DNA of 64,000 nucleotides, taken from the NCBI GenBank assembly GCA_029690005.1, contig CP121458.1:4481872-4545871 (forward strand), read 5' to 3'. The notes below the pieces were generated by a model. It was given only the letters and a program-made list of their open reading frames with translations. It was not told the origin of the DNA and made no database searches. Position numbers and translations under genes: made by a program. The first letter of the stretch is position 1. Each line of letters starts with the position of its first letter. Shown in pieces: positions 41,876 to 62,560 of the stretch. This DNA comes from Prescottella defluvii. GTDB lineage: Bacteria; Actinomycetota; Actinomycetes; Mycobacteriales; Mycobacteriaceae.

Positions 41876-44800
41876 TCACGGTTCCCCCAGAGTCTCGGCC
41901 GCGAGCAGTGGTCCCCACACCACGGCGGCCTCGGTGCCGAAGCGGGTCGGTTCGTGCGCGCCCGGCGGCGCGGGCTTGTCGGTGAGCACGGACAGCTCCG
42001 CGTCGGGCCCGTACACGTACCGGACGTGGCGATCCTTGCCGTCGCCGAAGTCGCCGCCCCACGCGCGCTCGGCCGCCACCAGCGCGAGTTCGATCGACCG
42101 GCCCCGGAAGCGCTGGTCCGCGTACGCCGCCGAGGCCGCGGCCGTCATCGGCAGCGGCGCCACCATCCCCCGGTCCCGCATCTCGACCAGACGGGCGAGG
42201 ATCTCCGCCGGATTCTCCGGCGCCACCAGCGTCGACCGCATGACCGGGGTGCGCCCGCTACCGCGCCCGGTGGTGACGGCCGTGAGATTCCCGGACCGCC
42301 CCGTGGCGGCGACGGCGAGGAGCCGCACCCACGCACCGATGCGGTGTTTGGGTGCCAGCCGGGAGAACGTGGTCCGCGCGATCACCTCGCCGTGCACCCC
42401 GTCGACGGTGCCGACCAGCCGCCGCCCACCGCCGAGGTGGACGTCGATGTCGACCGGCTCGGATCGTCCGGCGTGCACCAGCGCGGACGCCCGCGCGAGC
42501 GAGTCGACGGTCCATTCGATGTCCGAAAGCGCGGTGTCGCCGAGCCGGGCGGGCGGCAGGGTGCCGCGCCGCCACTCCGCGGCCCGGAACGCCGCCGGAT
42601 CGACACCGGCCAGCCGGGCGCCGAGCATCCGCTCGCCGATCCCCCAGCGCGCCAGCGGATCCAGTTCGAGATCGAGGGTGTCGGCGACGTCCTCGTCGAG
42701 GTCGGGGACCCGGAATCCGAGCCGCTGCCGCAGGAAGCCCTGGATCGGATTCTCGAGGAACGCGATCAGCTCCGCGAGGTCGACGTCACCCGGCTCCAGC
42801 GGCGGCAGCGCCTCCGGAAGGAACGCGGGCGCCGGCACAGACGGCTGCTGCGCGGCACGGGCGCCGCCGAGCGCGGCGTGGTCGAAGCTGCGCGGCCCCG
42901 CCGGATCGAAGTTGCGGGGATCGAAGGGCTGCAACGGATGCCGCTGGACGACGTCGGCCCCCGCCATGGCCGCGAGCACGTCCCGCAGTTCGCTCAGCGG
43001 CACCGCGGGCGGCCTCGGCGTGCCGTTGACCGGGTCGGCGCCGGTGTAGAACAGCAGCAGCCGCTCGGTGGCGGACATGATCGCGTCCAGCAGCAGCTGC
43101 CGGTCCTCGCTGCGCGGATCCCGTTCCCCGAGAAGCGGATCGCGGGCGAGGACGTCGTCGCCGTCGATGTTGGTGCCGCGGGGAAGACGTCGTCGTCGAG
43201 CCCGAGGAGCACCACCACGCGGTGCGGCACCGAACGCATCGGGACCATGGTGCACACGGTGAGCTCGCCGGTCCGGAAATTCGCGCGGGTGGGCCTGCCC
43301 GCGAGCCGCGAGCGCAGCATCGCCCGCACGTCCGCGAGCCGCAGCAGCGTGTCCCGCCGTGTTCGACGGCCGCGGCCAGCTCACGGCGCGCCTGCCCCAG
43401 CTGCCACGCGTCGGCCTCGGCGACGTCGACCAGCAGGTCGAGTGCCCGCGCGAACCCCGCCGACCACTGTTCGGCGGACTGCGGCCCGGTGAGCCCGCGC
43501 AGCGACACGTCGAGCCGGTCGACGTACTCGGCGAGCCGTCCGGTGAGGTCGATGTCGTTGCTCTCGACGTCGTCGAGCGGCAATGCGAGCGAGAGCCATT
43601 CGCCGTCGATGTCGTCGGCCGCGGCGCCGAGCAGGATCCGGTCGAGCGCCGACTTGAGGGTGTTCTGCTCGAAGTCGCCGAGCCCGAAGGCGCCGCGCTC
43701 ACGACGGCCGATCCCCACCGCGCGCCCGCGTCGGTGGTCCACTCCCGCATCCGTTCGAGGTTGTCGTCGTCGAAGCGGAAGCGACGCCGCACCGGGGCGG
43801 TCGCGGCCAGATCGAGTACCTGGCTGACGGTGACCCGGGAGTCGGCGAGGTCGAGCAGCGTCGCGACCACCCCGAGGACGGGATTGGTCTGGTGCAGTGC
43901 ACGATCCGCCAACCGCACCCGCAGCCGGTGCCCGGGATGACTGAGCGGACCTTGGACGCCCTGCCCGAACGCCGCGCGGACGAGCGGCGCGTACGTCTCG
44001 ACATCGGGGCACATCGACCACGACGTCGCGCGGCTCGAAGCGTCGGATCGTCCTGGAACAGGTGCAGCAGACGCTCGCGCAGCGCCTCGACCTGCCGGGC
44101 CGGGCCGTGGCAGGCGTGGATCTCGACGGTGTCGTCGCCCGGGGCCGGCGAGGGGGCACGGTCGGCGGCGATGTCCGACTGCAGCCGGCCCAGCAGCGTG
44201 GTGGGCCGCGCACCGCCCGGATGGTGCGCATCGATCTTCTCGACGGCGGCGAGCCGGGACTGGAGCTCGCGCACGTCCCGGGCGAGGCTCGCGAGCAGCG
44301 GGTGTGCGACGTCGAGGGCACGGTTGTCGCCAGCGCGCCGTCGCGGCGGATCGGCGTCTGCGAGCGCTCCCCACATCTCGATGCTGGGATGCGGAATCCA
44401 CAGGTGCACATCGCGATTGGCGCCGATCGCGGACAGCACTGCGATCTGGTCGGCGCCGAGCCTGGTGGGCCCGAACAGCGACAGCCGTTCGGGCAGGTCG
44501 AGCAGCGCCGGCTCTGCCCGCAGCCGCGCGCAGGCGCCCTCGAGCCGCTCGGCGGGACTCGGGCTGCCGATCTGCTCCCGCAGCCGGCGCCACAGCTGCG
44601 CCTGCCACCGCAGGTCGTCGTCCAGCGGGTCGGTGCCGTCGGTGTCGCGTCCGGCCGCCCAGTCGACGAGCATCCCGGGGCGCTGGGAGCCGTACGCACG
44701 GAACAGTTCGGCCAGGTGCGCGGCGGTGCCGTAGCGGCGGCCGGCGCGATGGTCGTCGGCGCCACGCCCGTCAGCGCCGCAGCCGAGGTGTCGGGCAAGC

Positions 44801-45152
44801 GCCGCGCACCACGGCTCACCGATACAGTCGTCGATCACCTGCAGCAGCGTCCACAGCATCCGCGACGGATGCCATGGGTCGTCGTCGACGTCGTAGCCGG
44901 TCGCGGTCGCGAGCGCCTGGTCGATCAGCCGCGTCGGGACGGGAACTCGATGTTGGCGGCGACACCGTCACCGTGGCCGGCGTCACCCGCGCCCAACACG
45001 TGTGACAGACGCTGCGTCAGCCAGCGCTCGACGCCCTTCGCGGGAACCGCGATCACCTCGCGCTGGAACGGGTCCGCGAGGGGCCTGACCAGCACATCGG
45101 CGAGCGCGGACGCCAGTGTTCCAGCGCTCTCCGCGCGGTGCAGCGTCAGCAA
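41876..45152 (-). CDS. recC: Exodeoxyribonuclease V gamma subunit RecC, at least 3 frameshifts
   Basis: N-terminus (TTG) LLTLHRAESAGTLASALADVLVRPLADPFQREVIAVPAKGVERWLTQRLSHVLG...GVAANIEFP typical of RecC. Collinear pieces in ORFs 43699-44859, 42786-44819, 41876-44608. A C-run deletion follows EFPSP (ttcccgtccccg to ttcccgtcccg). Confidence 0.85.
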
Positions 45153-45442
45153 TTCCGTACCCCTCGGCGTCCCCGCACCGTATCGTCGGGCAATTCCAGG
45201 GCCTAGGAGTATCACATGCTCCGGACAACTCAGCCTATCCGGAAGGCTGTTGGTCCGAGCCGCCAGCTCACCTCGGTGCACGACAGAGTTTTGTACAAAA
45301 CCAGATCTTGCGGAATCGACAGGCCTCACTTGTTCCCGGTTCCCGCCAGAACATTCTCGGCAAGAGGTCGAGCAGGGTCTGTTCCCAGGCCGTTGTCGGC
45401 CGGGAACAGACCCCGTCGTTGTCGGTGGCTACGCGCTACTTG

Positions 45443-46915
45443 CTACTTGTTGGATCCGAAGCCGCCGAGCGAGCCGAGGCTGCCGGTTCCGGGGCCTCCG
45501 GGGTCTCCGCCGGGCGCGACGATCACCGATACCTGATCGGCGGAGGCGTTGACGGTGCCCTGGCCCGAGTACTCGGCGGTGACGGTCCGCTGGCCGGCGG
45601 TAGCCGGGGTCCACGCAGTCGTGGCAGTCCCGTCGGATCCGACCTGGCCGGTGCCGATGACGGTGCCACCGTCCTTGAAGGTGACGGTACCGCCGGCGTT
45701 GGCGGGGTTGACCTTCGCCGTCAGGGTCGTGGTCGTGCCGACGGTGACGCTGCCGATCGGGTTGAGGGTGGTGGTCGAGTCGGTGGTGGAGGCGGGTGCC
45801 TCGGCGACGTTGACCTGTGCGGTGGTGCCCGATCCGGTGACGCCGTCACGGCCGGAGAAGGTGGCGGTGAGGGTGTGGCTGCCGGCCACCGTGGGCACCC
45901 ACTGGTAGGTGACCTTCCCGTCGTTGCCGACCGGCAGCGTCGCCAGTGTCGTGGTGCCGTCGCGGAGTTCGACGGCGCCACCCGCCGCGGTCGGGCTGAC
46001 CGTGGCGGTGACGTTGGACGCGCGGCCGACCTGGGCGCCGGTCACCGGCGCAAGCGTGATCGTCGAGGTGACGTTCTGCTCGGCGACCTGCACGGTGATC
46101 GTCCCTGACTGGGACGCGGTGGAGAACGCGGTGCCGAGGAAGCCTGCCGAGAGCGCGTGGCTGCCCCGGAGCGTGGGGGTCCAGGCGAGGGTCGCAGTTC
46201 CGCCGGCGTCGATGGCGGCCTGGCCGATTACGGCTGCGCCGTCGCGGAATTCGACGGCGTCACCCGCCGCGCCGCCGGTGACGGTGGCGGTCAGCGTGCT
46301 CGGCACGCCGACGCGAGCGCCGGCGACGGGGGCGAGGGTGGTCGTGGTACCGGTCTTGGCCATCGTGATCGACGGGCCCTCGGTGCCGTAGTTACCGCTG
46401 CCGAGTGATCCGCCGTAGTCCATGCCGGTGGCCAGTGCGGTATCACGGGCGCAGTTCTGACCGACCTTGTAGCTGACGCTGAAGACAGGGTTCCGGAAGA
46501 AACCGGGGCGATTCTGAACCACCCAGTCGGTGATGCCCCAGGAGGCGCGGACGTAGCCGGTCCCGTTGCCCTCGTCGGCGACGACCTCGGGGTTGGAGAC
46601 AGGGTATTCGCTCTGGCCGATCATCTTGGCGGAACCCGGGACGTAGGTCATGCAGGACGGGTGCCGGTCCTTGACGTTGTAGATGAACTCGTCGACCCAA
46701 CTGGTCCGGTCGAACTTCGTCGTCACGGTGATCGTGTCGCCGACCGCGGGGGCGGTGTTGCTGACGGTGCGGGTGAAACGGGAGCTTCCGTCGTCCCAGG
46801 TGATCGACCCGGGGGCTGCGCCGGCGACACCTGCGCCGAGGAGGGCGAATGCACCAATCGTCAGTGTCGTTGCCGCGCCGACGGCGATGCCGCGCGTCAT
46901 CGCTCGTGATGTCAT
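45443..46915 (-). CDS. Secreted protein: signal peptide, N-terminal domain, three tandem bacterial Ig-like repeats (about 95 aa each), Gly-rich C-terminal tail
   Basis: MTSRAMTRGIAVGAATTLTIGAFALLGAGVAGAAPG signal peptide. Repeats begin TTTTLAPVAGARVG..., TSTITLAPVTGAQVG..., TTTLNPIGSVTVG..., each ending in a SHxLxA/TAxF or TAEY motif. Tail GGDPGGPGTGSLGSLGGFGSNK. Intact. Confidence 0.7.
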   Translation of the reverse strand: MTSRAMTRGIAVGAATTLTIGAFALLGAGVAGAAPGSITWDDGSSRFTRTVSNTAPAVGDTITVTTKFDRTSWVDEFIYNVKDRHPSCMTYVPGSAKMIGQSEYPVSNPEVVADEGNGTGYVRASWGITDWVVQNRPGFFRNPVFSVSYKVGQNCARDTALATGMDYGGSLGSGNYGTEGPSITMAKTGTTTTLAPVAGARVGVPSTLTATVTGGAAGDAVEFRDGAAVIGQAAIDAGGTATLAWTPTLRGSHALSAGFLGTAFSTASQSGTITVQVAEQNVTSTITLAPVTGAQVGRASNVTATVSPTAAGGAVELRDGTTTLATLPVGNDGKVTYQWVPTVAGSHTLTATFSGRDGVTGSGTTAQVNVAEAPASTTDSTTTLNPIGSVTVGTTTTLTAKVNPANAGGTVTFKDGGTVIGTGQVGSDGTATTAWTPATAGQRTVTAEYSGQGTVNASADQVSVIVAPGGDPGGPGTGSLGSLGGFGSNK

Positions 46916-47198
46916 GTGTTTCCTTTGCTCGCTGGTGTCGCGACCGCCGACATCGAGGTCGCAGCGTTGGTTGAATGGCCGTGTGCTGGGCCCGGGGCGG
47001 TCGGGTCGCCGACCACACGGGGACTACACGCTGGGGCTAGCCGCCATCCCCTGAGAACGTTGCTGACCAGGCCGGTTGAACTGAGCCGGCCGACGACGGG
47101 GCGGCGATACGACAGACTGCGGATCGGGCCACACAGATCTCCGTTCGATCAAGCGCATTCCCGCAGTATGTGACTGCAGGACCCAGCAAAAGAGGTGC

Positions 47199-47243
47199 CC
47201 GTGCGCGATACGAATCACGCACGGGCACCTTTATACAGACAAT
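47199..47243. terminator. Perfect 13-bp-stem hairpin with T-rich flanks on both sides (bidirectional rho-independent terminator candidate)
   Basis: aaaag-AGGTGCCCGTGCG-cgatacgaatca-CGCACGGGCACCT-ttatac. Lies downstream of the minus-strand lutC fragment. Confidence 0.45.
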
Positions 47244-47363: not shown

Positions 47364-48058
47364 TCACCGGGCCGAACGACGCTGAGAACGGCTCAGCCCA
47401 CGATCACCACATGCAAGTTCCGCGGCCCGTGGTCGGCCGCTCGGGCACCAACCGCGCGCAGCGCCTCGGGTACGCCCACCTCGATGCTGTCGACGGTCAC
47501 GACGCACACGTGGAGGTCCGGCACCAGGGTGAGCGCCCGGCGGCCCTGGTCGCGGCCGCCGTCGAGGAAGATCGTGCCGGTCTCGGCGCAGGTGACCGCC
47601 GACGCGGTCACGACGCCGTCCAGGTCGGACAGTTGCGGGCCGGCATGTCCGGGAATCGACGACGACCTCGCCGTCGAACCCCGACAGCCACGAATCCTGC
47701 AGTCCCGCAGGGACACCGACGCGGTCGTCTATGACCTGCAGCAGCGTGCACAGCATCCGCGACGGATGCCACGGGTCGCCGTCGACGTCGTAGCCGGTCG
47801 CGGTCGCGAGCGCCTGGTCGATCAGCCGCGTCGGGACGGGAACTCGATGTTGGCGGCGACGCCGTCACCGTGGCCGGCGTCACCCGCGCCCAGCACGTGC
47901 GACAGACACTGCGTCAGCCAGCGCTCGACGCCCTTCGCTGGAACCGCGATCACCTCGCGCTGGAACGAGTCCGCGAGGGGCGTGACCAGCACATCGGCGA
48001 GCGCGGACGCGAGCGTGCCGGCGCTCTCGGCGCGGTGCAGCGTCAGCAATGCTCATCT
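47364..48058 (-). pseudogene. Chimeric remnant: duplicated 5' end of recC (codons 1 to about 107) fused in frame to the distal half of a third lutC copy
   Basis: 47735-48058 is about 95% identical at nucleotide level to 44830-45152 (the recC start region). Identity stops exactly at the recC start codon. From about 47716 downward the sequence is about 90% identical to lutC (52801-53160), through to the lutC stop at 47393. ORF 47364-47756 reads MLCTLLQVIDD (RecC) then [24 protein letters not shown] (LutC-like) continuously. A further frameshift lies inside the lutC part. Confidence 0.6.
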
Positions 48059-48123
48059 CCTAGCGGCGTCGTCGACAGTGCGGCATCGGCCAAGAATTAT
48101 CACACCGATCCGACGCTCCACGG

Positions 48124-48204
48124 CGACCACAGGACATGCGGCAGTCAACGCGACCACAGGACATGCGGCAGTCAACGCGACCACAGGACATGCGGCAGTC
48201 AACG
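48124..48204. repeat. Perfect tandem repeat, 27 bp x 3 (cgaccacaggacatgcggcagtcaacg), with degenerate partial copies on both sides
   Basis: Three identical consecutive units. ggcgaccacagg before and cgcccacagcg after. Sits between the recC'-'lutC remnant and the IS left end. Confidence 0.9.
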
Positions 48205-48278
48205 CGCCCACAGCGCCTCGCATACATCTAGGGCGTGTCTCCTAAATCCGGGCGGTCGGATCGGCGACACTGTCCCGT

Positions 48279-48674
48279 GTGTCGCGCACCGAATACCTGA
48301 CTGATGAGCAGTGGGCGTTGATCGAGCCGTTGCTTCCTACGTCCGACGGATGTCGGGGCCGCCCGTTCCGGGACAACCGTCGGGTCGTGGAGGGCATCGT
48401 CTACCGCTACCGAGCCGGGATCGCCTGGCGGGATGTACCCACGGATTTCGGTCCGTGGCAGACGATCTGGAAACGGCACCGCCGCTACGCCGGGGACGGC
48501 ACCTGGGACAAGATCCTCGCTTCCCTGCTGGCGCATGCGGATGCAAACGGGTTGGTCGACTGGACCGTGTCGGTGGACTCGACGATCTGCCGAGCCCACC
48601 AGCACGGCACCAACCTCACCCGCGACACAGGGGGATCTGTCGAATTACACGAACCTCCTGAACGAGCCGGCTGA
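48279..48674 (+). CDS. IS5-family transposase OrfA (N-terminal HTH part)
   Basis: MSRTEYLTDEQWALIEPLLP...GRPFRDNRRVVEGIVYRYRAGIAWRDVP...WTVSVDSTICRAHQHG, the typical IS5/IS427 N-terminus. Confidence 0.75.
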   Translation: MSRTEYLTDEQWALIEPLLPTSDGCRGRPFRDNRRVVEGIVYRYRAGIAWRDVPTDFGPWQTIWKRHRRYAGDGTWDKILASLLAHADANGLVDWTVSVDSTICRAHQHGTNLTRDTGGSVELHEPPERAG

Positions 48675-49170
48675 CCACGCCCTCGGCCGCTCCCGTGGCG
48701 GGCTCGGCACGAAGATCCACCAGCTCGCCGACGGACACGGCCGTCCCCTCGTCCTGCTGATCGGGCCAGGTCAGGCCGGTGACTCGCCGATGTTCCCGAT
48801 CCTGATGGGTGCGTTGTCGGTGCCCCGGTTCGGCCGTGGAAGACCCCGAACCCGCCCGGACGCGGTGCTCGGCGACAAGGCCTACTCGTCGAAAGCGATT
48901 CGCACCCACCTCCGGTCGAGAGGCATCGAAGCGATCATCGCCGAACCGGACGACCAGAAGCGTCACCGCCTCCGGCGGGGCGGCCGCGGAGGCCGTCCGG
49001 TCGGGTTCGACACCGAGAAATACAAGGGCCGCAACGTCGTCGAACGATCCTTCGCCACCCTCAAGCAGTGGCGCGGGCTCGCCACCCGCTACGACAAACT
49101 CGCACTCACCTATCGGGCCGGCGTGGTCCTCTCAGCGGTTTGTATCTGGCTGAGGTCCCTCACGAAATAG
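48433..49170 (+). CDS. IS5-family transposase OrfB (DDE catalytic part). Frame is open from 48433. Homology begins near 48640.
   Basis: EPADHALGRSRGGLGTKIHQLADGHGRPL...VLGDKAYSS...GRNVVERSFATLKQWRGLATRYDK. OrfB is +1 relative to OrfA, not the -1 expected for programmed frameshifting. This may be a native two-ORF arrangement or another single-base indel. Confidence 0.7.
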   Translation: MYPRISVRGRRSGNGTAATPGTAPGTRSSLPCWRMRMQTGWSTGPCRWTRRSAEPTSTAPTSPATQGDLSNYTNLLNEPADHALGRSRGGLGTKIHQLADGHGRPLVLLIGPGQAGDSPMFPILMGALSVPRFGRGRPRTRPDAVLGDKAYSSKAIRTHLRSRGIEAIIAEPDDQKRHRLRRGGRGGRPVGFDTEKYKGRNVVERSFATLKQWRGLATRYDKLALTYRAGVVLSAVCIWLRSLTK

Positions 49171-49279
49171 GAGACACGCTCTAGCCCATCACCTGGTGTC
49201 ACTTGCCAATTCGTCGCGTGGCTCGCCGGCCGGCAGCCACTTGCTAGTCTGCCCCGCGACAGATGTAGCCAGGGGCAAG

Positions 49280-49912
49280 ATGTCGGACCTATTCGTCGAA
49301 CCGAACGACGCCGAGAAGTGGACTGCGGTGGAACCGACCACCCGTTCATCTGCGGTCGTCTTGGAGACGGTGCCGGCTGACGAAACCGGGCCGAACCAGC
49401 ACCGAAGGCTCGCCATGCCGGTGCCCGGGATTTGCGTGGCGCACGGTTTGCCCGCCACGAACACGGCGACCTTCCTGGTGCGGCCGTATCACAAGATCAT
49501 GAATGACTCATATCGCGACGCGGTGCCGATACTTCCTGGCGGCTTCTGGGATCTCCTCACGAACTCCCTCAGTCGACTCCGAGAGCAGCCTTCCGTGCAA
49601 ACCACATGGCCGCTCTGCTCCCGATGCGAGGCTCGCCGAAGTCGATGCCTGCGCGCCGCGGCGATCCTCGCCGCGTGCGGACCAGTGCTCATCATGGTGT
49701 CCGTCGGCCTCGGGTTGGCAGATTTGCGTGGGCCAGCCACGACGGCTTCGTTTCTGACCGGACTGGCGTTCTTGCCGCTCGCGCTCGCGTTCCTCACCGC
49801 GACCCGTCCCGACAAACTCTTCCACGCCGCAGCCACCCCAGACGGCTCCGCCGTGATCGTGACCGACCCGCATCCAAAGTTCGCGGCCGCGATACGGGCC
49901 ATTCGAGACTGA
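49280..49912 (+). CDS. Hypothetical membrane protein (2-3 TM, CxxC)
   Basis: MSDLFVEPNDAEKW...CSRCEARRSRC... then hydrophobic AAILAACGPVLIMVSVGLGLA and FLTGLAFLPLALAFLTA. No domain call. Confidence 0.3.
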   Translation: MSDLFVEPNDAEKWTAVEPTTRSSAVVLETVPADETGPNQHRRLAMPVPGICVAHGLPATNTATFLVRPYHKIMNDSYRDAVPILPGGFWDLLTNSLSRLREQPSVQTTWPLCSRCEARRSRCLRAAAILAACGPVLIMVSVGLGLADLRGPATTASFLTGLAFLPLALAFLTATRPDKLFHAAATPDGSAVIVTDPHPKFAAAIRAIRD

Positions 49913-49966
49913 AGGATCTTCAGCCGAAGACCACCACTTGCACATACGGCGGCGGGAACATGCGTG

Positions 49967-50521
49967 CTACGCACCTGCGTTCGATCGAATGTCGAGCCCC
50001 AAGTTGATCACCATCACATCAGTTTCGAGCGCAGCCATCTGCTCGACGAGGTTGGTCACCGTCAGCTGAGTCAAATACTGCTTCCCCGCGCGCTCCGTGA
50101 TGAGGAAACGCGTCGTACTCGCCAGCATCCAGTGGTCGGCGTTGTACGCGCCTCGGACGAAGAGCGAGCGATGCCCGAGGAAGTCGGCATGCGAGGATTC
50201 CTCCTCCTGCCAATCGGGCAACTGCGACGAAGTCCTACGCGCCGCTCCGAGGAGTTGGTCCGCGTCGACCCTGCCCGACAGTTCACCGTGCAACACGACG
50301 GCGTTCGGCGTAAAACCGTTGAGCTCGCACTCCGGAGCCAGGAGCACCATCCAAGCCCCGGGAAATGCATCTGGCGCAGCCTTCGTCCAGCCGGGAAGCA
50401 CCGGCACGGTCACGACCGGAACAGCCGGATCGGTCGCACAACACGGCGAGCATTCCAGGCCGTTCTCATCCAGATAGTCCAGCAACGTACCGCGCCTCCG
50501 CGAACCCCCGCCAGTCTCGCC
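49967..50521 (-). CDS. Hypothetical protein (about 184 aa)
   Basis: MTRGETGGGS...LPGWTKAAPDAFPGAWMVLLAPECELNGFTPNAVVLHGELSGRVDADQLLG...TQLTVTNLVEQMAALETDVMVINLGL. No recognised domain. Confidence 0.35.
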   Translation of the reverse strand, partial: GETGGGSRRRGTLLDYLDENGLECSPCCATDPAVPVVTVPVLPGWTKAAPDAFPGAWMVLLAPECELNGFTPNAVVLHGELSGRVDADQLLGAARRTSSQLPDWQEEESSHADFLGHRSLFVRGAYNADHWMLASTTRFLITERAGKQYLTQLTVTNLVEQMAALETDVMVINLGLDIRSNAGA

Positions 50522-50526
50522 GCGTG

Positions 50527-51441
50527 TCATGACACCTCGGATCCGTCGGCGGATGACGCTGCCCGTAGTCGTGATCGCAGCGGCGCTGGAGTCAGGAGCG
50601 CTCGTGCCCTTGCGCCGGTAAGCGCACGACGACGATCCGGTGATTCCCGCAATGACGACAACAGTCCGAGCAGCACGTTCGGTTCCGCCACGAGGACATG
50701 AGCATCTAGCCTCAGCCGGTTCGTCTCGTCGTACCGCAGCCGGCCCCGCCCCGGAAGGGGCATCCCACTCACCAACCAGATGATTGGATTGCGAACTTCG
50801 ATCAGGCCGCCCACCACCTGCTCGTCCACCTGGAACTCGACGATGTCGTCCCACGAGACGAAGGTGTCGATCGTCCGTGTCGACCACAGTCGACGAAGTG
50901 CAACTATCCGTCGAATCCCGCTCGGGTACAGGCGGATCGACGTCGAGGAGCGGAACCCAAGGAAAAGCGCAAGCAAGATCAACGCGGCGATGCCGCAGGC
51001 AGTCATGAACTTGGCTTGCCCGGAGTCTCGAGCCTCGAGCGGTCCCACATCGAAACCGAACAGCCAACCCGCCGCAACGGCCAACCCGATCACTGCGACT
51101 GCCGCGAGGCTTACGAAGAGCGGTACCAGGTATTTCCGGGTGGGCACCTCAATCCCCTCACCGATCTCGTCATGGCAGACGACGATCCGCTTCGACAGCC
51201 CTAGATATCGAAACCCGCCAAGACCCGCCAGTCCCACCGTCGCGAAGCCGAAAACTAGCGCCAGAACGGGCGCGATCAAGATCACCACGGGTTCGTCGCG
51301 GACCACACCCTGCACCGCAGTCGCGGACATGATGCACGCCATCGATGCGGTCACGGCAGCCCCCACCAAAGGTCCCCATCGAAGCCGTTGGGACCAGGTC
51401 TGCTTCCATGAATCAGTCTTCGCCACGTCCTGTCCCCTACT
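50527..51441 (-). CDS. Membrane protein with 4 TM helices and a C-terminal bPH-like domain
   Basis: TM segments GPLVGAAVTASMACIMSA, VVILIAPVLALVFGFATVGLAGLGGF, LVPLFVSLAAVAVIGLAVAAGWLFGF, ACGIAALILLALFLGF. C-terminal beta-rich region. Start unclear. Confidence 0.35.
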   Translation of the reverse strand, partial: SRGQDVAKTDSWKQTWSQRLRWGPLVGAAVTASMACIMSATAVQGVVRDEPVVILIAPVLALVFGFATVGLAGLGGFRYLGLSKRIVVCHDEIGEGIEVPTRKYLVPLFVSLAAVAVIGLAVAAGWLFGFDVGPLEARDSGQAKFMTACGIAALILLALFLGFRSSTSIRLYPSGIRRIVALRRLWSTRTIDTFVSWDDIVEFQVDEQVVGGLIEVRNPIIWLVSGMPLPGRGRLRYDETNRLRLDAHVLVAEPNVLLGLLSSLRESPDRRRALTGARARALLTPAPLRSRLRAASSADGSEVS

Positions 51442-51442
51442 G

Positions 51443-51646
51443 CTAGTCCCAAACCCACTGCAAGAACTTCGATCCGCCGTAAGCGGCACCTCCACCTACG
51501 ATCACGCCGACGACCAGTCCGACCGCCGTGCCGAGTCCCGGGACCACAGAGCCTGCAGCAGACCCCGCCACTGCACCACTAGCTATCCCACCGGCCCAAG
51601 ACCCAGCAACAAGCCCCGCTCCCGCTCCCGCCGCCTCGGTAGTCAC
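51443..51646 (-). CDS. Small Gly/Ala-rich membrane protein (67 aa), ATG overlaps the upstream stop (ATGA)
   Basis: MTTEAAGAGAGLVAGSWAGGIASGAVAGSAAGSVVPGLGTAVGLVVGVIVGGGAAYGGSKFLQWVWD. Could instead be the frameshifted C-terminal tail of the upstream WXG-fused protein. Confidence 0.35.
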   Translation of the reverse strand: MTTEAAGAGAGLVAGSWAGGIASGAVAGSAAGSVVPGLGTAVGLVVGVIVGGGAAYGGSKFLQWVWD

Positions 51647-52443
51647 GGCCTTCGCGGCCCCATCCCACCGTTGATGTCGTCGGCAATCGCCGGCACAGCA
51701 CCCAGGACGGCACCGAACGGCCCCAACCTGCGACCGATCAAGCGTGCAACGTCATCCCCAGACGCCTTCGCGGCGCTGACCAGTCCCTCGCCAGTCGCAT
51801 CGACCATCACCCCGATCGTCGAGGCTGCCACCGTCGCCGGCACATCCGGCGCCCAGCTGAACTCCCCATCCGGCGATTCGGCGATCCGTCCAGGTACGGC
51901 GTCCCGTCCCGCCGATGTCACCTCTGACAGGGATTCACGGACCCGACGGGAAACGTCCGATGCCGCAGACTCCGCCTGCCGCAATGCATCGAGCAAGGCG
52001 AGCGACAGTTCTGCTGCCTCTCTCTCCAATCGGAGACGCGCAGCGTCCCGGGTATCAGCTGGCGCCATGACAAGCCACACTGTCAGCGTGCTGGCGTCCA
52101 CCGTTCCGTCCTCGCCGACCGCGAAACCACGTTGTCGGATGCCATTCACGGTAGAGATCACATGGTCGCGGGCTGAACCGATCACGGCAGCTCCGCTCTC
52201 GAACTCCTGGGCAAGTTGTTGCAGCGCATGGGCGACAAGGCTCGCCGTCGAGTTCTCACGACTAATTCGTTTGGTCGCGGAGTCGGCGGCGACGCCGTCC
52301 CAACTCTCACAAAGTGAATCCTGACCAGCGATCAGCTCCCGCATTCGGTCGTCCAGCTGACTCGCCAGACCCCTGATGCCCTCGCTCGTCAACTTGAGGG
52401 CATCAGGATTCCAAGCTGAAACGTCCGACACGGTCGGACTCAC
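51643..52443 (-). CDS. WXG100-like N-terminal domain protein with a roughly 170-aa C-terminal extension (T7SS-substrate/polymorphic-toxin-like architecture)
   Basis: N-terminal approx. 90 aa: AWNPDALKLTSEGIRGLASQLDDRMRELIAGQDSLCESWDGVAADSA contains a central W-x-G motif with helical flanks. Followed by a non-homologous extension. Start overlaps the upstream small gene (ATGA). Confidence 0.5.
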   Translation of the reverse strand: MSPTVSDVSAWNPDALKLTSEGIRGLASQLDDRMRELIAGQDSLCESWDGVAADSATKRISRENSTASLVAHALQQLAQEFESGAAVIGSARDHVISTVNGIRQRGFAVGEDGTVDASTLTVWLVMAPADTRDAARLRLEREAAELSLALLDALRQAESAASDVSRRVRESLSEVTSAGRDAVPGRIAESPDGEFSWAPDVPATVAASTIGVMVDATGEGLVSAAKASGDDVARLIGRRLGPFGAVLGAVPAIADDINGGMGPRRP

Positions 52444-52733
52444 GACGGGACATCCATTGCGTCGAGCATGCTCGTGAAGTCCGATTCGGACACTTCGTAG
52501 TTGTTTGCCGACCCTCGGGCGATCTCCGCGATCGAAGAAAGCCGTATGCAGATGTTCTTGAGAACACCGGCGACTCCCTCGTAGCCTTCGGTGCCGACTG
52601 CCGCGAACTCGGTACCCGGCAAAGCTCCTTGCGAATCCGCGAATGGCGAACTCACATCGACGTGTGCGAGCGAATCCCCCGCCGAAGACGCCGTCTCCGC
52701 GAACTTCCTCAGCGCGCCCGGATCGACCTTCAT
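52440..52733 (-). CDS. Small (97 aa) EsxB/DUF-type partner protein preceding the WXG-like gene
   Basis: MKVDPGALRKFAETASSAGDSLAHV... About 100 aa helical protein. Translationally coupled (TGA/ATG overlap) with the next gene. Confidence 0.35.
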   Translation of the reverse strand: MKVDPGALRKFAETASSAGDSLAHVDVSSPFADSQGALPGTEFAAVGTEGYEGVAGVLKNICIRLSSIAEIARGSANNYEVSESDFTSMLDAMDVPS

Positions 52734-52800
52734 CTTGAACCGCCCCCGTGTTGCTCCCCTGACGCGCGACGGTATCAGGAACTCGCGGACGCGGTTTCAG

Positions 52801-53424
52801 TCAGCCCACGATCACCACATGCAGGTTCCGGGGCCCGTGGACGCCCTCGACGCGCTCAAGCTCGATGTCCGACGTCGCCGACGGCCCGCTGATCATCGTG
52901 GTCGGACGCTCGGGAACCAACCGCGCCAGAGCCTCGGGCACGCCGACCTCGATGCTGTCGACGGTCACGACACATACGTGCAGGTCCGGGACCAGGGTGA
53001 GCGCCCGGCGGCCCTGGTCGGGACTGCCGTCGAGGAAGATCGTCCCGGTCTCGGCGCACGTCACCGCCGACGCGGTCACCACGCCGTCCAGCTCGGACAG
53101 CTGCGGGGCGGGCACGTCCGGGGAGTCGATGAAGACGTCGCCGCCGAACCGGGACAGCCACGAATCGTCCAGTCCCGCAGGGACACCGACGCCGTGAACA
53201 TCGAGGTCACCGAGAACTCGCGCCAGCACCTCGGGCAGTTCGTCGGCCGCACTCCGGTGCACGACAGCCTTGTAGTCGAGCAGTCGGTCCACCAGCAGGT
53301 CGACGCGCTGCTCGTCGGGCATGGTGCGACCGGTGCGGTAGTTCCGCGGAACCTCGACCGCTGCCGGCGGCGCGAGCGTCAGCGCGTCCCGGATCCGTCC
53401 CATGATGACGTCGCGTGAGCTCAC
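52801..53424 (-). CDS. lutC: Lactate utilisation protein LutC (LUD domain), copy 1
   Basis: [41 protein letters not shown] overlaps the lutB stop (GTGA). Intact. Confidence 0.8.
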   Translation of the reverse strand: MSSRDVIMGRIRDALTLAPPAAVEVPRNYRTGRTMPDEQRVDLLVDRLLDYKAVVHRSAADELPEVLARVLGDLDVHGVGVPAGLDDSWLSRFGGDVFIDSPDVPAPQLSELDGVVTASAVTCAETGTIFLDGSPDQGRRALTLVPDLHVCVVTVDSIEVGVPEALARLVPERPTTMISGPSATSDIELERVEGVHGPRNLHVVIVG

Positions 53425-54934
53425 TGCTGCGCCTCCTTGCGCGCTTCGTCGATCGCGGCCCGCCCCTCGACGGAATCCCACCACTGCCGGAACGTCTGCT
53501 TAGGCGGGGCCGGGATGTCGCGGGCGTCGGTCCACCCGTTGAGCGGCGGCGGCAGCGTCGAGATCTTGCCCTTCTTCCCGCCACAACGCGGCCGAGTCCG
53601 GCGGCCTTCTGCGCCAGCGTGAATCGCTTGGCCGACGACATCACCACGGACGCCGCCTTCATCGCGGCCGCCTCGGCTCCGAAGCCGGACTTCTGCACCT
53701 TCTGGTGCCGCAGCTCCACCAGCAGCGACGGGATGTCGATCTTCACCGGGCACGCGTCGTAGCAGGCGCCGCACAGGCTCGACGCGAACGGCAGCGTCGA
53801 GTTCGGATCGTCCTTGCCGTCCATGCCCGCCAGCTGCGGGGTCAGCACCGCGCCGATCGGGCCCGGATACGTCGACCCGTACGCGTGCCCGCCGGTGCGC
53901 TCGTACACCGGGCACACGTTCAGGCACGCCGAGCAGCGGATGCAGTTGAGCGCCTGACGCCCGACGCCGTCGGCGAGGGCAGCGGTGCGGCCGTTGTCGA
54001 GCAGCACCAGGTGGAAGTCCTGCGGGCCGTCGCCGGGCGTCACCCCCGTCCACATCGACGTGTACGGGTTCATCCGCTCCCCCGTCGACGAGCGCGGCAG
54101 CAGCTGCAGGAACACCTCGAGGTCCCGGTACGTGGGGATCACCTTCTCGATGCCCATCACGGTGATCAGCGTCTGCGGCAGCGTCAGGCACATGCGGCCG
54201 TTGCCCTCGGATTCGACGACGCCGAGGGTGCCGGTCTCGGCGATGCCGAAGTTGGCGCCCGAGATCGCCACCGGCACCGTCATGAACTTGTGCCGCAAGA
54301 ACTTCCGCGCCGCGGCCGCGAGGTGCTTGGGATTGTCGTCCAGCTCCGGATCGACGTCGGCCATCTCGCGCAGGAAGATCTCGCGGATCTCCGACCGGTT
54401 GCGGTGGATCGCCGGCACCAGGATGTGCGAGGGCTTGTCGTGACCCAGCTGGACGATCAGCTCCGCCAGGTCGGTCTCGTAGGCGTGGATCCCGTTCGCC
54501 TCGAGGTGCTCGTTGAGCTCGATCTCCTGCGTGGCCATCGACTTGACCTTGATGACCTCGTCGGAGCCGGTGGCCCGCACCAGCTCGGTGACGATCGCGT
54601 TGGCTTCGTTCGCGTCGGCCGCCCAGTGCACGGTGCCCCCGCGCGCGGTCACCGCAGCCTCGAGCTGGTCGAGCAGCTCCGGCAGCCGGCCCATGACGTC
54701 GGTCTTGACGGCCGACCCGGCGTCGCGCAGGTCCTCCCAGTCCGGCAGCTCGCCCGTCACGTTCAGCCGCTTGGCGCGGATCGTGTGGGTGGCCTTGCCG
54801 ATGTTGCGGCGCAGCTGGGCATTGGCCAGCTCGTGGTGCGCGGCGGCCGGGAACTTCTCCTGCCCGCGAAGGAACCCGACGCCCTTGGGGGCGCGCGGCG
54901 GGAAGGCCGGCAGGCCCAGAGACACCTCGCTCAT
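53421..54934 (-). CDS. lutB: Lactate utilisation iron-sulfur protein LutB (4Fe-4S ferredoxin-type, DUF162), copy 1, one frameshift near 53585
   Basis: [40 protein letters not shown]...LCGACYDACPVKIDIPSLLVELR. ATG overlaps the lutA stop. Confidence 0.8.
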
Positions 54935-55698
54935 GCGGTCACCTCCATGCTCTCCGTCGACGCCAGGATCTCGGCCAGGTGGATCGTCCGCGTACCCATC
55001 TGCAGCCGGGACATGCCGCCGCCGATGTGCATCAGGCAGGACGAGTCACTGGCGGAACAGAATTCGGCGCCGGTGTCGGCGACGTTGCGGATCTTGTCGG
55101 CCAGCATCGCGGTCGACGTCTCGGCGTTCTTGATCGCGAACGTGCCGCCGAACCCACAACACGAGTCCGCCTCCGGCAGCTCGACCAGGTCGATCTCACG
55201 GACCGCCCGCAGCAACTGCAGCGGCTTGTCCGCGACCCCGAGCATCCGCAGGGAATGGCACGTCGGGTGATAGGTGACCCGGTGCGGGAAGTACGCGCCG
55301 ACGTCGGTCACACCGAGCACATCGACCAGCAGCTCCGACAGCTCGTACGTCTTCGCCTTCACCGTCTCGACCCGGCCGCACAGCGCGGTAGTCCCGTACC
55401 GCGAGGCGACGATCTCGTGCTGGTGCCGCACCGACCCCACGCACGACCCCGACGGCGCGACCACCGCGTCGATCGAACCGTCCCCGAACGTGTCGGCGAA
55501 GTTCTCCACCAGCGGCAGCGCGTCGGGCTGGTAGCCGGTGTTCACGTGCATCTGTCCGCAGCACGTCTGGCCAGGCGGGAACACCACCTCATGGCCCAAC
55601 CGGGTAAGCAGCAGGGCAGTCGCTCGAGGAGCATTCGGGAACATCGTGTCCCCCATGCACGTGGCGAACATCGCGATTCGCATGCGGATCTCCGGCAT
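54931..55698 (-). CDS. lutA: Lactate utilisation protein LutA (CCG-domain Fe-S oxidoreductase), copy 1
   Basis: MRIAMFATCMGDTMFPNAPRATALLLTRLGHEVVFPPGQTCCGQMHVNTGY...CHSLR...CCGFGGTFAIK. Intact. Confidence 0.8.
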   Translation of the reverse strand: MPEIRMRIAMFATCMGDTMFPNAPRATALLLTRLGHEVVFPPGQTCCGQMHVNTGYQPDALPLVENFADTFGDGSIDAVVAPSGSCVGSVRHQHEIVASRYGTTALCGRVETVKAKTYELSELLVDVLGVTDVGAYFPHRVTYHPTCHSLRMLGVADKPLQLLRAVREIDLVELPEADSCCGFGGTFAIKNAETSTAMLADKIRNVADTGAEFCSASDSSCLMHIGGGMSRLQMGTRTIHLAEILASTESMEVTA

Positions 55699-55829: not shown

Positions 55830-55896
55830 ACCACAGGACGGTCATCTGACGCCTCACACCGAGCCGCCCCACCCCGGCGCAATCCAGGAGTTTCAT

Positions 55897-57562
55897 GTGG
55901 AAACCGACATCCTCGCGGTGACCTTCACACCCGCGACCGACGCCGTCGGCGGCAGCCTCACCGCGTCGGCGCTCGTCGGCCTGGCCCCGCTGGTCACGTT
56001 CTTCGTGCTGCTGGCCGGCTTCAAGCTCAAGGCCTGGTACGCCGGGCTCGGCGCACTCGCCGTCGCGGCCCTGGTCGCGATCGTCGGCTTCGACATGCCG
56101 GCCTCCCTGACCGGACTGTCCGCGCTCCAGGGCATCACCTTCGGCCTCTTCCCGGTGATGTGGATCGTCGTCACCGCGATCTGGTTCTACGAACTGACCG
56201 TCGTCAGCGGACGCTTCGAGGATCTGCGGAGGGTGTTCAGTTCCATCGGCCGCGGCGACATGCGCGTGCAGGCCATGCTCATCGCGTTCTGCTTCGGCGG
56301 CATGCTCGAGGCCCTCGCCGGATTCGGCGCCCCCGTCGCGATCACCGGCGCGATGCTCCTCGCGATCGGCATGCCCCGACCCGCGCCGCCGTGACCGTCC
56401 TCGTCGCCAACACCGCACCGGTTGCCTTCGGCGCCATGGCGATTCCGATCACCACCGCCGGCAACCTGACCGACATCCCGCCGACCGAGATCGCCGCCGT
56501 CATCGGCCGCCAGACGCCGATTCTCGCGCTGTTCGTGCCGCTGCTGCTGCTCTTCCTCGTCGACGGCCGTCGCGGCATGAAGCAGGCGTGGCCCATCGCG
56601 CTGGTGACCGGCGTGGTGTTCGCGCTGGCCCAGTTCTGGTGCTCGTCCCACTTCTCATACGAGCTCACCGACGTCGTCGCCTCGCTCGCGGGCCTGGCCG
56701 CCGCCGTGATCATGCTCCAGTTCTGGAAGCCGAAGACCCCCGAGGATCAGCGGTCCCAGGTCGAGCCCGAGCGCCTCGGCCCGTCGCGCGTGTTCCTGGC
56801 GCTGTTCCCTACCTGCTGGTGGTCGTGGTGTTCGGCGTCGCCAAGCTGTGGACCCTGGGGGTCGACATCCCCGCGTGGCTGGCCGGCACCGACCGCAAGA
56901 TCGAATGGCCCGGCCTGTACGGCAACCTGCTCACCGGCAGCGGCGCCCCGTCGTCCAGCGCGGTCTACACGTTCTCCTGGCTGTCCAACCCCGGAACCCT
57001 GCTGCTGATCTCCGGCATCATCGTCACGATCGTCTACTCGCTGTGGACCAGCGGTGGACGGTTCCGGCTGACGGCGCGTGACGCGGTCACCACGTTCGGG
57101 GTCACCGTGGTCAAGATGCGTCTGGCCATCGCGACGGTCGCGACCGTCCTGGGCCTGAGCTACGTGATGAACCAGTCCGGCCAGACCGTCTCCATCGGGA
57201 CGTGGCTCGCCGGCACCGGCTCGATCTTCGCGTTCTTCTCCCCGATCCTCGGCTGGCTCGGGACCGCGGTCACCGGATCCGACACGTCCGCGAACGCACT
57301 GTTCGCGAAGCTGCAGCAGACCGCCGGTCTGCACGCCGGCATCGACCCGACGCTGCTGGTCGCGGCCAACACCTCGGGCGGCGTGGTCGGCAAGCTGGTG
57401 AGCCCCCAGAACCTCACGATCGCGGCGACCGCCGTCGGCCAGCCCGGCAGCGAGCCGATCCTGCTGCGCAAGGTCGTCGGCTACAGCCTGGCGATGCTGC
57501 TGATCCTGTGCACGCTCGTCTACCTGCAGTCCACCCCGATCCTGAGCTGGATGCTGCCGTGA
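55897..57562 (+). CDS. lctP: L-lactate permease (LctP family), frameshifts near 56390 and 56810
   Basis: Multi-TM protein with LctP-like N-terminus. ...FGLFPVMWIVVTAIWFYELTV...AMLIAFCFGGMLEALAGFGAPVAITGAMLLAIG... continues in ORFs 55731-57008 and 56588-57562. Confidence 0.75.
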
Positions 57563-59520: not shown

Positions 59521-60143
59521 TCAGCCCACGATCACGACATGCAGATGGCGAGGCCCGTGCACTCCCTGCACCCGCTCCATCTCGATGTCGACGGTCGCCG
59601 ACGGCCCGCTGATCATCGTGGTCGGCCGTTCGGGTTCGAGGCGGGTCACCGCCTCCGGCACCCCGACCTCGACACTGTCGACGGTCACCACGCACACGTG
59701 CCGGTCCGGCACCAGCGTCAACGCCCGCCGACCCTGGTCGGGACCGCCGTCGAGGAAGATCGTCCCGGTCTCGGCGCACGTCACCGCCGACGCGGTCACC
59801 ACCCCGTCCAGGTCGCCCAGATCGGGGGCGGGATGTCGGGCGCGTCGACGACGATCTCCCCGTCGAACCGGGACAGCCACGAATCGTCCAGTCCCGCAGG
59901 CACGCCGACCCGTCGGACGCCGACGTCGGCGAGCACCCGGGCCAGCGTCGCCGGCAACTCGGACGCGGCACACCGGTGCACATGGGCGTCGTAGTCCTCG
60001 AGGCGGTCGACGAGCAGGTCGATGCGTTCGGCGTCGGGCATCGTGCGTCCCACGCGGTACTCGCGCGGCACGTCGACCGGAGTGGGCGGGGCCAGCGTGA
60101 GAGCGCCCCGGATCCGCCGCAGAACCTCGTCGCGTGAGCTCAC
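59521..60143 (-). CDS. lutC: LutC, copy 2 (about 88-90% nucleotide identity to copy 1)
   Basis: [42 protein letters not shown] overlap with lutB2. Confidence 0.8.
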
Positions 60144-61653
60144 CGCCGCGCCTCCTTCCGCGCCGCGTCGATCGCCGCCCGACCCTCCGGCGAGTCCCAC
60201 CACTGCCGGAACGTCTGCTTCGGCGGCGCGGGGATGTCGCGGGCGGACGTCCACCCGTTGAGCGGCGGCGGCAGCGTCGAGATCGCGCCCTTCTTCCCAG
60301 CTATCAGTCGACCGAGTCCGGCGGCCCTCTGCGCCAACGTGAACCGCTTGGCCGACGACATCGCCGCCGACGCGGCCCGCATCGCCGCAGCCTCGGCACC
60401 GAACCCGCTGTGCTCCACCTTCTGGTGCCGCAGTTCGATGAGCAGTGACGGGATGTCGATCTCGACCGGGCAGGCGTCGAAGCAGGCGCCGCACAGGCTC
60501 GACGCGAATGGCAGCGTCGAGTTGGGGTCGTCGGCGCCCTCCATCCCGGTGAGCTGCGGGGTCAGCACCGCCCAATCGGCCCCGGGTACGTGGAGCCGTA
60601 CGCGTGGCCACCGGTGTGCTCGTAGACGGGGCACACGTTCAGGCACGCCGAGCAGCGGATGCACTTGAGCGCCTGCCGACCGATCGCATCGGCGAGGGCG
60701 GCGGTGCGGCCGTTGTCGAGCAGCACCAGGTGGAAGTTCTGCGGCCCGTCACCGGGGGTGACACCGGTCCACATCGACGTGTACGGGTTCATCCGCTCGC
60801 CGGTGGACGAGCGCGGCAGCAGTTGCAGGAACACCTCCAGGTCGGCGTACGTCGGGATGATCTTCTCGATGCCCATGACGGTGATGAGCGTCTGCGGCAG
60901 CGTGATGCACATCCGCCCGTTGCCCTCCGACTCGACGACGCCGAGGGTGCCGGTCTCGGCGATGCCGAAGTTGGTTCCGGAGATCGCCACCGGGACGGTC
61001 ATGAACTTGTGCCGCAGGAACTTTCGGGATGCCGCGGCCAGGTGCTGCGGGTCGTCGTCGAGATCGGGGTCCACACCGTCCATCTCGCGCAGGAAGATCT
61101 CCCGGATCTCCGCGCGGTTACGGTGGATCGCGGGGACCAGGATGTGCGACGGGCGGTCGTGCCCCAGCTGCACGATCAGCTCCGCCAGGTCGGTCTCGTA
61201 GGCGTGGATGCCGTGCTGCTCCAGATACTCGTTGAGACCGATCTCCTGCGTGGCCATCGACTTCACCTTGATGACCTCGTCGGAGCCGGTCTCCTGCACC
61301 AGCTCGGTCACGATCGCGTTGGCCTCGATCGCGTCCGCCGCCCAGTGCACCACGCCGCCCCGCGCGGTCACCGCGGCCTCGAACTGCTCGAGCAGCTCCG
61401 GCAGCCTGTTCAACGCGTCGACCTTGATCGCCGATCCCGCGTCGCGCAGGGCCTGCCAGTCCGGCAGCTCGCCGGTGACCTCGAGCCGCTTGGCCCGAAT
61501 GGTGTGCGTGGCCTTGCCGATGTTGCGGCGCAGCTGCGGATTCGCGAGTTCGTGGCGCGCCGCCTCCGGGAACGTCTCGTCGCCGCGGAGGAACCCGACG
61601 TCGTCGGGGGCGCGGGGCGGGAACTCCGGGATGCCGAGACCGACGGCGGTCAT
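60140..61653 (-). CDS. lutB: LutB, copy 2, frameshifted near 60590
   Basis: [31 protein letters not shown]... / ...[50 protein letters not shown]. Confidence 0.75.
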
Positions 61654-62410
61654 GTCGCCGCCCCTGCCGGAACCCGGGATTCGGCCGATGCGAGGATCTC
61701 CGCCAGATGAATCGTCCGAGCCCCCATCCGCAGCCGGGACATGCCGCCGCCGATGTGCATGAGGCACGACGAGTCACTGGCACAACAGAACTCGGCACCC
61801 GTATCGCCGATATTGCGGATCTTGTCCGCGAGCATCGCGGTCGACGTCTCGGCGTTCTTGATCGCGAACGTGCCGCCGAACCCACAACACGAGTCGGCCG
61901 CCGGCAGCTCGACCAGGTCGATCTCGCGGACCGCCCGCAGCAACTGCAGCGGCTTGTCCCGACGCCGAGCATGCGCAGGGAGTGGCACGTCGGGTGATAG
62001 GTGACCCGGTGCGGGAAGTAGGCGCCGACGTCGGTCACACCGAGCACATCGACCAGCAGCTCGGACAGCTCGTACGTCTTCGCCTTCACGGTTTCCACGC
62101 GATCGCACAGTGCGGTGGTCCCGTACCGGGCGGCGACGATCTCGTGCTGGTGCCGGACCGACCCGACGCACGACCCGGACGGCGCGACCACCGCGTCGAT
62201 GGCTGCGTCCCCGAAGCTGTCGGCGTAGTTCTCCACGAGCGGCAGCGCGTCGGGCTGATAGCCGGTGTTGACATGCATCTGCCCGCAACACGTCTGCCCG
62301 GGAGGGAACACCACCTCGTGCCCGAGGCGGGTGAGCAGGATCGCGGTCGACTTGGACGCCTCGGGAAAGAGCGTGTCGCCGATGCACGTCGCGAACAGGG
62401 CAATTCGCAT
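61650..62410 (-). CDS. lutA: LutA, copy 2, frameshift near 61960
   Basis: MRIALFATCIGDTLFPEASKSTAILLTRLGHEVVFPPGQTCCGQMHVNTGY. C-terminal half ...REIDLVELPAADSCCGFGGTFAIKNAE... lies in another frame. Confidence 0.75.
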
Positions 62411-62560
62411 GTGACCTCCCGCAGTCGGTCTGTAGCAATCACGCTATCGCCGATCCGACGGCGGCGCCCGAGTACCGCGGAAGTCGGCCCCCGAACCACA
62501 GCTGAAGGGACCCGTCGTCCGCCGGCAGCGCATGAAGGTTCCCTTCAGCTGGGCGCGGGA

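Follow-up and report, generated by a model that had tools for sequence, protein, structure and literature searches.

A recC-lutC Junction Shared among Prescottella Genomes: An Apparently Old Join and Its Later History

Introduction

How does a copy of the beginning of recC come to be fused, in frame, to the end of a lutC gene, with complete versions of both genes lying to either side of it? The question is posed by the window, the whole stretch of 64,000 nucleotides analysed here, in which the chimera is accompanied by an insertion sequence (IS) of the IS5 family and an array of 27-bp repeats. A sequence-only reading of this DNA took the chimera to be the scar of an illegitimate recombination associated with the IS, one that destroyed a third lut operon, and it offered as an alternative that the assembly had collapsed at a repeat or was chimeric. 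We propose instead that the junction, called J below, probably joins two allelic versions of the island between lutC and recC and is not what remains of a destroyed third lut operon. The considerable confidence expressed in that "probably" applies to the best explanation as a whole: the origin of J, the islands it joins, its aftermath, and the features that are later or artefactual, all taken together.

Relatives were found through a one-genome-per-species scan with the N-terminal region of RecC, which led to loci in Prescottella and Rhodococcus, and protein look-ups added L062 (CP162617.1) and L063 (P. soli). Two other loci recur throughout, L013 (P. agglutinans RHO4) and L011 (P. defluvii). 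The closest relative of the window is P. soli, at 95.3-95.5% identity, and L062 shares about 97-98% identity with P. agglutinans RHO4.

Results

The Chimera and Its Parental Genes

When the whole window is compared with itself by BLASTN, the 5' end of recC (44817-45153, minus strand, as are the chimera, the hairpin, and Big3 below) reappears as a direct repeat at 47714-48050, with 94.1% identity over 337 bp (E 3e-147). The repeat, recC', is a pseudogene fragment comprising the first 337 nt of recC and retains a match to Pfam Exonuc_V_gamma (2e-12). The TTG start codon (45153 / 48049-50) is precisely where the homology stops, much as the sequence-only reading had it (about 320 nt at about 95%, ending at the start codon).

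The other part of the chimera, lutC' (47393-47725), represents the 3'-terminal ~395 nt of a lutC1-type gene, including the natural stop at 47393-95. Self-comparison puts its tail (47428-47725) at 89% identity to lutC1 (52897-53195, E 5e-106) and 83% to lutC2 (59617-59912), and over the lutC alleles compared, the identities of lutC' are 89-93% with lutC1 genes and 80-83% with lutC2. It has suffered several 1-nt indels besides a deletion of 61 bp, which is flanked by the direct repeat CCACG and is common to the window and P. soli.

At J itself (47714-47725), the homologies to recC and lutC overlap in ACCGCGTCGGTG. The microhomology amounts to 6-13 nt, its length varying with the parental allele: GCGTCGGTG at the join is common to lutC1 alleles and the recC consensus, and the window's own recC retains TCGGTG. 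The orientation is head to tail, running from recC nt ~337 to lutC ~395 nt before its stop, and the reading frame is preserved across the join. Two more claims thus hold up, that the duplicate is joined in frame to the distal part of a lutC1-like gene at about 90% (89% to lutC1, with the frame running through in RHO4) and that this fusion of the start of recC to the end of lutC, with the frame kept, is the scar of illegitimate recombination.

The order along the minus strand is lutABC1 (55698-52801), then recC'|lutC' (48050-47393), then recCBD (45153 onward). The lutABC1 operon (52801-55698) is intact and is the left-hand parent locus of J. Apart from 1-nt indels, the parental genes outside J are full-length orthologues, and those on both sides are on the same strand as J. 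Because lutABC1 and recCBD flank J intact, with order and strand unchanged, which is the geometry of a duplication-type junction, no loss of an operon is required.

On the 3' side of lutC' there is a hairpin like an intrinsic terminator (47193-47230), with a 17-bp stem, a 4-nt loop, and a CTTTTG tail; this is the strong terminator that the earlier reading assigned to lutC', and it is conserved with the spacer between lutC and Big3 in P. defluvii (L011). Beyond it lies the gene called Big3 (45443-46915), which encodes a secreted protein with bacterial Ig-like domains (Big_3_5). It is the cargo of what we call the J-Big3 module and is 98% identical to its counterpart in P. agglutinans RHO4. Big3 contains an internal repeat of 110 bp at 75% identity (45956-46063 vs 46238-46345), corresponding to repeated Ig-like domains, of which there are three Big_3_5 stretches. 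Compared with P. soli, the window's Big3 shows an in-frame 18-bp deletion at 45503, in the Pro/Gly-rich C-terminus, and its recC an in-frame 15-bp insertion at 44781. A 30-nt stretch downstream from lutC' (47359-88) resembles the beginning of gene X (49288-317), but in GC-rich DNA, with seeds of 11-12 nt, we judged the likeness to be at the level of chance.

The Same Junction in Other Genomes

The breakpoint of J is identical base for base, reading …CAGGTCATAGACGACCGCGTCGGTGTCCCTGCGGG…, in the window, L013, L063, and both copies (J1 and J2) in L062. The Big3 cargo and the flanks recur with it; of the other assemblies, CP158802 and CP162617 are complete chromosomes, and that of P. soli is a draft. 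This amounts to five copies in four assemblies, the window included, in collections that hold one genome per species. The two copies in L062 (9707-10426 and 12152-12871) are 99.7% identical, and a gene encoding 275 amino acids stands between them. This recurrence shows that J is real, and J appears to be a single, old join, made by illegitimate recombination at microhomology. The junction 32-mer, CAGGTCATAGACGACCGCGTCGGTGTCCCTGC, has no match in metagenome contigs, nor did exact-protein look-ups of the window's Big3, LutA1, and IS orfB find a match in the gene index.

Two candidates were considered and rejected. A short RecC_N hit, P0130, taken for a possible J, is really a RecC truncated by the end of its contig, and the 3' end of lutC1 in L013, which might have been derived from a copy of J, is 97.5% identical to lutC1 of L062 vs 92.2% to J1.

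Islands on the Two Sides of the Junction

The interval between lutC and recC is hypervariable across species of this Prescottella/Rhodococcus group, and two of its forms are found without J. The A-type form (L001-L004) has EspC/WXG100-like and LpqN-like genes and a type A promoter block for recC. The B-type form (L011) runs from lutABC through the terminator and Big3 to a type B promoter and recC; the type B promoter is also found in L005. Where J is present, its left part consists of lutABC1, an island of small genes resembling those of type VII secretion systems (T7SS), the type A promoter, and recC 1-337, and its right part of the lutC 3' end, the terminator, Big3, the type B promoter, and recC. 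The islands on its two sides are unrelated, with gene X, an LpqN-like gene, a membrane protein gene, and WXG/EspC-like genes on the left, and the terminator and Big3 on the right. The succession of terminator and Big3 after lutC' is the arrangement found in P. defluvii (L011) behind a single full lutABC1. Upstream from J, no remnants of lutA or lutB were found; recC' is there instead.

The left island of the window (49277-52740) encodes X, a protein of 210 amino acids on the plus strand with an EspC-like N-terminus, an LpqN-like lipoprotein (Pfam 1.5e-30), a membrane protein, a weakly WXG100-like protein, and an EspC-like ORF of 97 amino acids. From these similarities, its content looks to be associated with type VII secretion; relatives have other cassettes in this place. 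Farther out, the window has two lutABC operons (52801-55698 and 59521-62423), about 3.8 kb apart and 84% identical over 2.9 kb. The same layout is seen in P. soli and CP162617.1, and in L062 and L063 genes for a GntR/FCD regulator and a lactate permease lie between the operons.

Blocks Upstream from recC and recC'

The DNA upstream from recC' (48051-48114, minus strand) contains …GTCGGATCGGTGTGATAATTCTTGGCC… and constitutes the type A recC promoter block. It is found upstream from the real recC in L001, L003, and L004; L002 has a diverged version of it there. Homology between the window and all of its J-bearing relatives stops at 48114. The type B region (45154-45442, minus strand) accompanies the true recC in the window, L013, L062, L063, L005, and L011, and in the genomes bearing J, it is contiguous at 96-97% identity. 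Types A and B share only a -10 core of the TGTGATA type. Conserved blocks are evident within both regions (48051-48114, upstream from recC', and 45154-45228, upstream from recC), reading …TGTCGGATCGGTGTGATAAT… and …TGTCCGGAGCATGTGATACT…, respectively. We take TGTCGGATCGGTGTGATAAT and TGTCCGGAGCATGTGATACT to resemble the mycobacterial RecA-independent (PafBC/RecA-NDp) promoter motif; given this likeness to a PafBC-type motif, J would carry an orphan damage-inducible promoter.

The Insertion Sequence and the 27-bp Array

The IS5-family element (48228-49184, plus strand) is 957 bp long, with inverted repeats of 17 nt (94% complementary) and CTAG at both ends. Its orfA and orfB are joined by a frameshift near 48628, so that the transposase matches Pfam DUF4096 and DDE_Tnp_1 in two frames, and it scores 120 and 131 bits against NCBIfam NF033580 (cut-off 110). 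In these respects it is like actinobacterial elements of the IS5 family (NF033580, IS427-like).

The element has inserted between gene X (ATG at 49277) and recC', which are divergent, and no relative has it at this site. Relatives have about 72 nt between the start of the divergent EspC-like gene and the promoter block. In the window, the same space is occupied by about 50 nt, the IS, 22 nt, the array, and 10 nt. No empty site that would define the target duplication was found among the relatives examined. The insertion therefore appears, from its distribution, to be a later change upstream from recC', specific to the window.

In a search of plasmids, the IS was the sole match: a copy 87% identical on the P. 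equi plasmid p1-WH99 (L064, 1501-2458). No other related copy is in the plasmid collection. This one is degenerate and contains in-frame stops, and no CDS is listed for it in the PLSDB gene table; it too has CTAG at both ends.

The array (48123-48213), GCGACCACAGGACATGCGGCAGTCAAC, has a period of 27 bp and 3.4 copies according to TRF, i.e., three perfect copies plus a partial one of 10 nt with one mismatch, where 0 are expected in shuffled sequences. The three perfect 27-mers had been recognized before; they had also been described as abutting the IS, and in that the description was wrong, as 14 bp lie between. The 27-mer is absent from 61 loci, and a sensitive BLAST search with it found no match across the full set of 65 loci or elsewhere in the window. 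It also has no match in metagenome contigs, and Rfam has none over 44.5-50 kb. Each 27-bp unit contains the hexamer TTGACT, considered as a -35 box and rejected because 41 nt separate it from the -10 motif. The array would appear to be a lineage-specific minisatellite, a later change in the window with no mechanistic link to J. What is specific to the window, namely the IS, the array, and the exact indels, is known from the assembled sequence alone.

The Shared Frameshift and the Quality of the Assembly

Both copies of the recC 5' end are short of one C (GGG on the plus strand, 44936-38 and 47833-35), a base that no relative lacks in either copy. Where the two copies in the window read TCCCG, P. 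soli reads TCGCCG in recC and TCCCCG in J. In the relatives, RecC is intact (1085-1092 amino acids), and in the window recC shifts frame five times. It is not alone in this, as frame changes also occur in recB, recD, lutB1, lutA2, and lutB2 (the last two by tBLASTN) and in a permease-like gene (55831-57559). The window differs from P. soli, to which it is 95% identical, by about 18 one-base indels per 7.9 kb. Counted with a frame-state HMM, same-strand frame switches number about 45 in the window, or 10.1 per 10 kb of coding sequence, vs 1.3-3.4 in eight relatives, about a fourfold excess. Most of the indels in the window are losses of one base beside runs of G or C. Single-base indels are found, for example, at 44937, 44038, 44015, 43712, 43353, 43179, 41785, 40451, 39750, 39660, 38247, 37507, 53579, 56375, and 56809.

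This pattern suggests that the assembly is unpolished or of low accuracy. A consensus error would strike identical contexts, so the same loss is to be expected in both copies, and an error of consensus sequencing is the most likely source of the shared frameshift. The observation that both copies lack one C therefore stands, but its value as a biological marker does not, given the excess of indels over relatives. Since single-base indels are so many in this assembly, its frameshifts, those of recC included, would count as evidence of pseudogenisation only with better reads.

Fate of the Fusion ORF

In RHO4 (L013), a single frame extends from the TTG of recC' to the stop of lutC, broken only by a change of TGG to TGA, and in P. 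soli a called ORF spans the join. The lesions differ by lineage: TGA in L013 and both copies in L062, the 61-bp deletion in the window and L063. The fusion ORF is dead in every genome that bears J.

Gain, Loss, and Exchange of Units

The genomes differ from one another by whole units. L063 (P. soli) reads lutC1-[island E]-J-[Big3]-recC, L062 reads lutC1-[island E]-J-[275-aa gene]-J-[Big3]-recC, and L013 reads lutC1-[275-aa gene]-J-[Big3]-recC. The window has lutC1-[own island + IS + array]-J-[Big3]-recC. L002, which is 95% identical to L013 in recC/recB, has no J. This comparison shows that units of island plus J have been gained or lost between genomes.

Lateral exchange is evident as well. 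In core genes, the window groups with P. soli and next with L003 and L004 (88-89%), which lack J, and not with L013. Over a module of 3.1 kb (48114 to ~45003), however, window and L013 are 96.3% identical, vs 83.8% in the adjacent recC/recB. The module covers the promoter block, recC', lutC', the intergenic DNA (96%), Big3 (98%), the type B promoter, and ~150 nt at the start of recC. Its right boundary is thus within the 337 nt of the recC 5' region, where identity to clade 2 drops from 96% to 84%, a profile that reflects later transfer of the whole module and not necessarily the founding event. These identity profiles show that the J-Big3 module moved between two clades, and the two partial genes in J would have acted as homology arms.

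Exchange also seems to have occurred within genomes. At both ends of the recC' repeat, the copies in J cluster with one another, but over the middle 185 nt the recC of the same genome is the nearest match to each J (95.7-96.7% vs 93.5-94.6% between genomes). The signal is a matter of 6 vs 12 differences per 185 nt, consistent in three genomes; on these small numbers, it shows what appears to be partial homogenisation of recC' with the resident recC by gene conversion.

Discussion

How the Junction May Have Arisen

J belongs to an ordinary class of feature, the duplication-type junction, and has a modestly interesting later history. A simple tandem duplication does not account for what lies around it. 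Two like copies between the repeats are absent, and the origin was therefore either inter-allelic or a duplication with later replacement. By the first route, incoming B-type DNA would have entered through a homologous crossover in recC with one end joined illegitimately, i.e., by homology-facilitated illegitimate recombination (HFIR). By the second, a tandem duplication would have come first and been followed by allelic replacement of one of the two copies of the island.

Competing Explanations

The explanation from which we began supposed that illegitimate recombination associated with the IS5 element destroyed a resident third lutABC operon here and left the recC'-lutC' debris. The element does lie 180 bp from the start of recC', and lutC' is indeed a third lutC-like sequence in the window. 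However, an identical J exists in four copies free of the IS (L013, L062 twice, and L063), in three other assemblies and in clades with 84% identity in core genes, and the ends of the element (48228/49184) are away from J (47714-25). Since the IS is missing from the relatives bearing J and its ends lie about 500 bp off, it did not make J. The third operon fares no better: lutC' groups among the alleles of lutC1 and not as a separate paralogue, the terminator and Big3 behind it follow the lutC1-Big3 arrangement of P. defluvii, recC' and not a remnant of lutA or lutB lies upstream from J, and lutABC1 and recCBD are intact outside it. Taken together, these observations make the explanation very improbable. 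The alternative of an assembly artefact, in which a repeat-induced collapse or a chimera created the join, draws on the low consensus quality of the window's assembly and its many 1-nt indels. It is harder still to credit, as the same join, Big3 cargo, and flanks are present in CP158802, CP162617, and P. soli, where four independent copies of J are spread over three other assemblies, and the 61-bp deletion in P. soli is identical.

One might also suppose that J has been maintained for a function, either as a fusion protein, RecC(N)-LutC(C), or as a selected unit of orphan recC promoter and terminator. The in-frame join speaks for this, as do the conserved promoter block and strong terminator and the persistence of J across clades and its duplication in L062. 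Yet each lineage has lesions of its own in the ORF (TGA, the 61-bp deletion, and further indels), close relatives in both clades do without J, and no part of the module has diverged more than J (lutC' 90% identical vs 98% for Big3), so that maintenance for function is a highly unlikely account. Somewhat less remote, though still unlikely, is the possibility that the shared frameshift reflects a true 1-nt deletion, copied from recC' into recC by gene conversion, or the reverse, with inactivation of RecBCD. The same base is missing from both copies, at a site within the central homogenised tract, and, judged by P. soli (TCGCCG in recC, TCCCCG in J), the window's recC has a run of the J type; were its true sequence TCGCCG, the loss of a base would not be a simple homopolymer error. 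Against this, recC has four further frame changes, others are found in recB, recD, lutB1, lutA2, lutB2, and 55831-57559, all in genes whose counterparts in relatives are intact, and frame switches are about four times as frequent throughout the window. That pattern suits consensus error and not a single conversion event. An inter-island join, with a frameshift introduced by the consensus, remains our preferred explanation.

What the Junction May Do

Whatever its origin, J serves as a shared evolutionary marker, one that has persisted and spread among Prescottella lineages and that parts alternative islands at a hotspot beside recBCD. It provides a natural example of a duplication junction turned into a substrate for the stacking and loss of islands and for gene conversion. 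Perhaps it is more than this. A speculative possibility, to which we give a minority chance, is that the chimera acts as a portable linker, offering homology arms to every lutC-recC island and so giving rise to a cassette array that needs no integrase. If so, T7SS-like cassettes and Big3 could be excised, stacked, and passed between species by general homologous recombination alone, and the conversion of recC by its pseudogene would be a side effect.

Comparison with Known Systems

In bacterial gene duplication-amplification, as treated by Reams and Roth, join-points reportedly form at short microhomologies by RecA-independent illegitimate recombination. J is like these join-points in its head-to-tail connection of the downstream recC nt 337 to the upstream lutC with 6-13 nt of microhomology, in the intactness of the parental genes outside it, and in the presence of direct repeats that permit loss, amplification, and gene conversion. 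It is unlike them in that the DNA between its repeats differs, A-type vs B-type islands. Laboratory duplications are usually short-lived, whereas J has been stable enough to be found in lineages 16% apart in neighbouring core genes.

HFIR is known from Acinetobacter, Pseudomonas stutzeri, and Streptococcus pneumoniae during the uptake of foreign DNA; we know of no documentation of natural transformation in the genera considered here. The concept is mentioned in PMC6382021. J would resemble its products if the recC side was anchored by homology, with foreign Big3 added together with its B-type flanks; the other end is at microhomology. It differs in that the recipient sequence at J is duplicated, not deleted, and HFIR is here only a candidate route.

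The serial lutC-recC islands, split by a repeated chimeric boundary and differing between relatives by whole units, also recall islands accreted in tandem. Such islands collect at hotspots and are bounded by partial copies of the flanking genes, e.g., the tRNA 3' repeats left by integrases. Unlike those, the J locus is without integrase, att site, or tRNA, its boundary is the accidental recC'|lutC' chimera, and exchange at J would have proceeded through general homologous recombination. As for the IS5-family element, it is a neighbour of the scar and not its cause.
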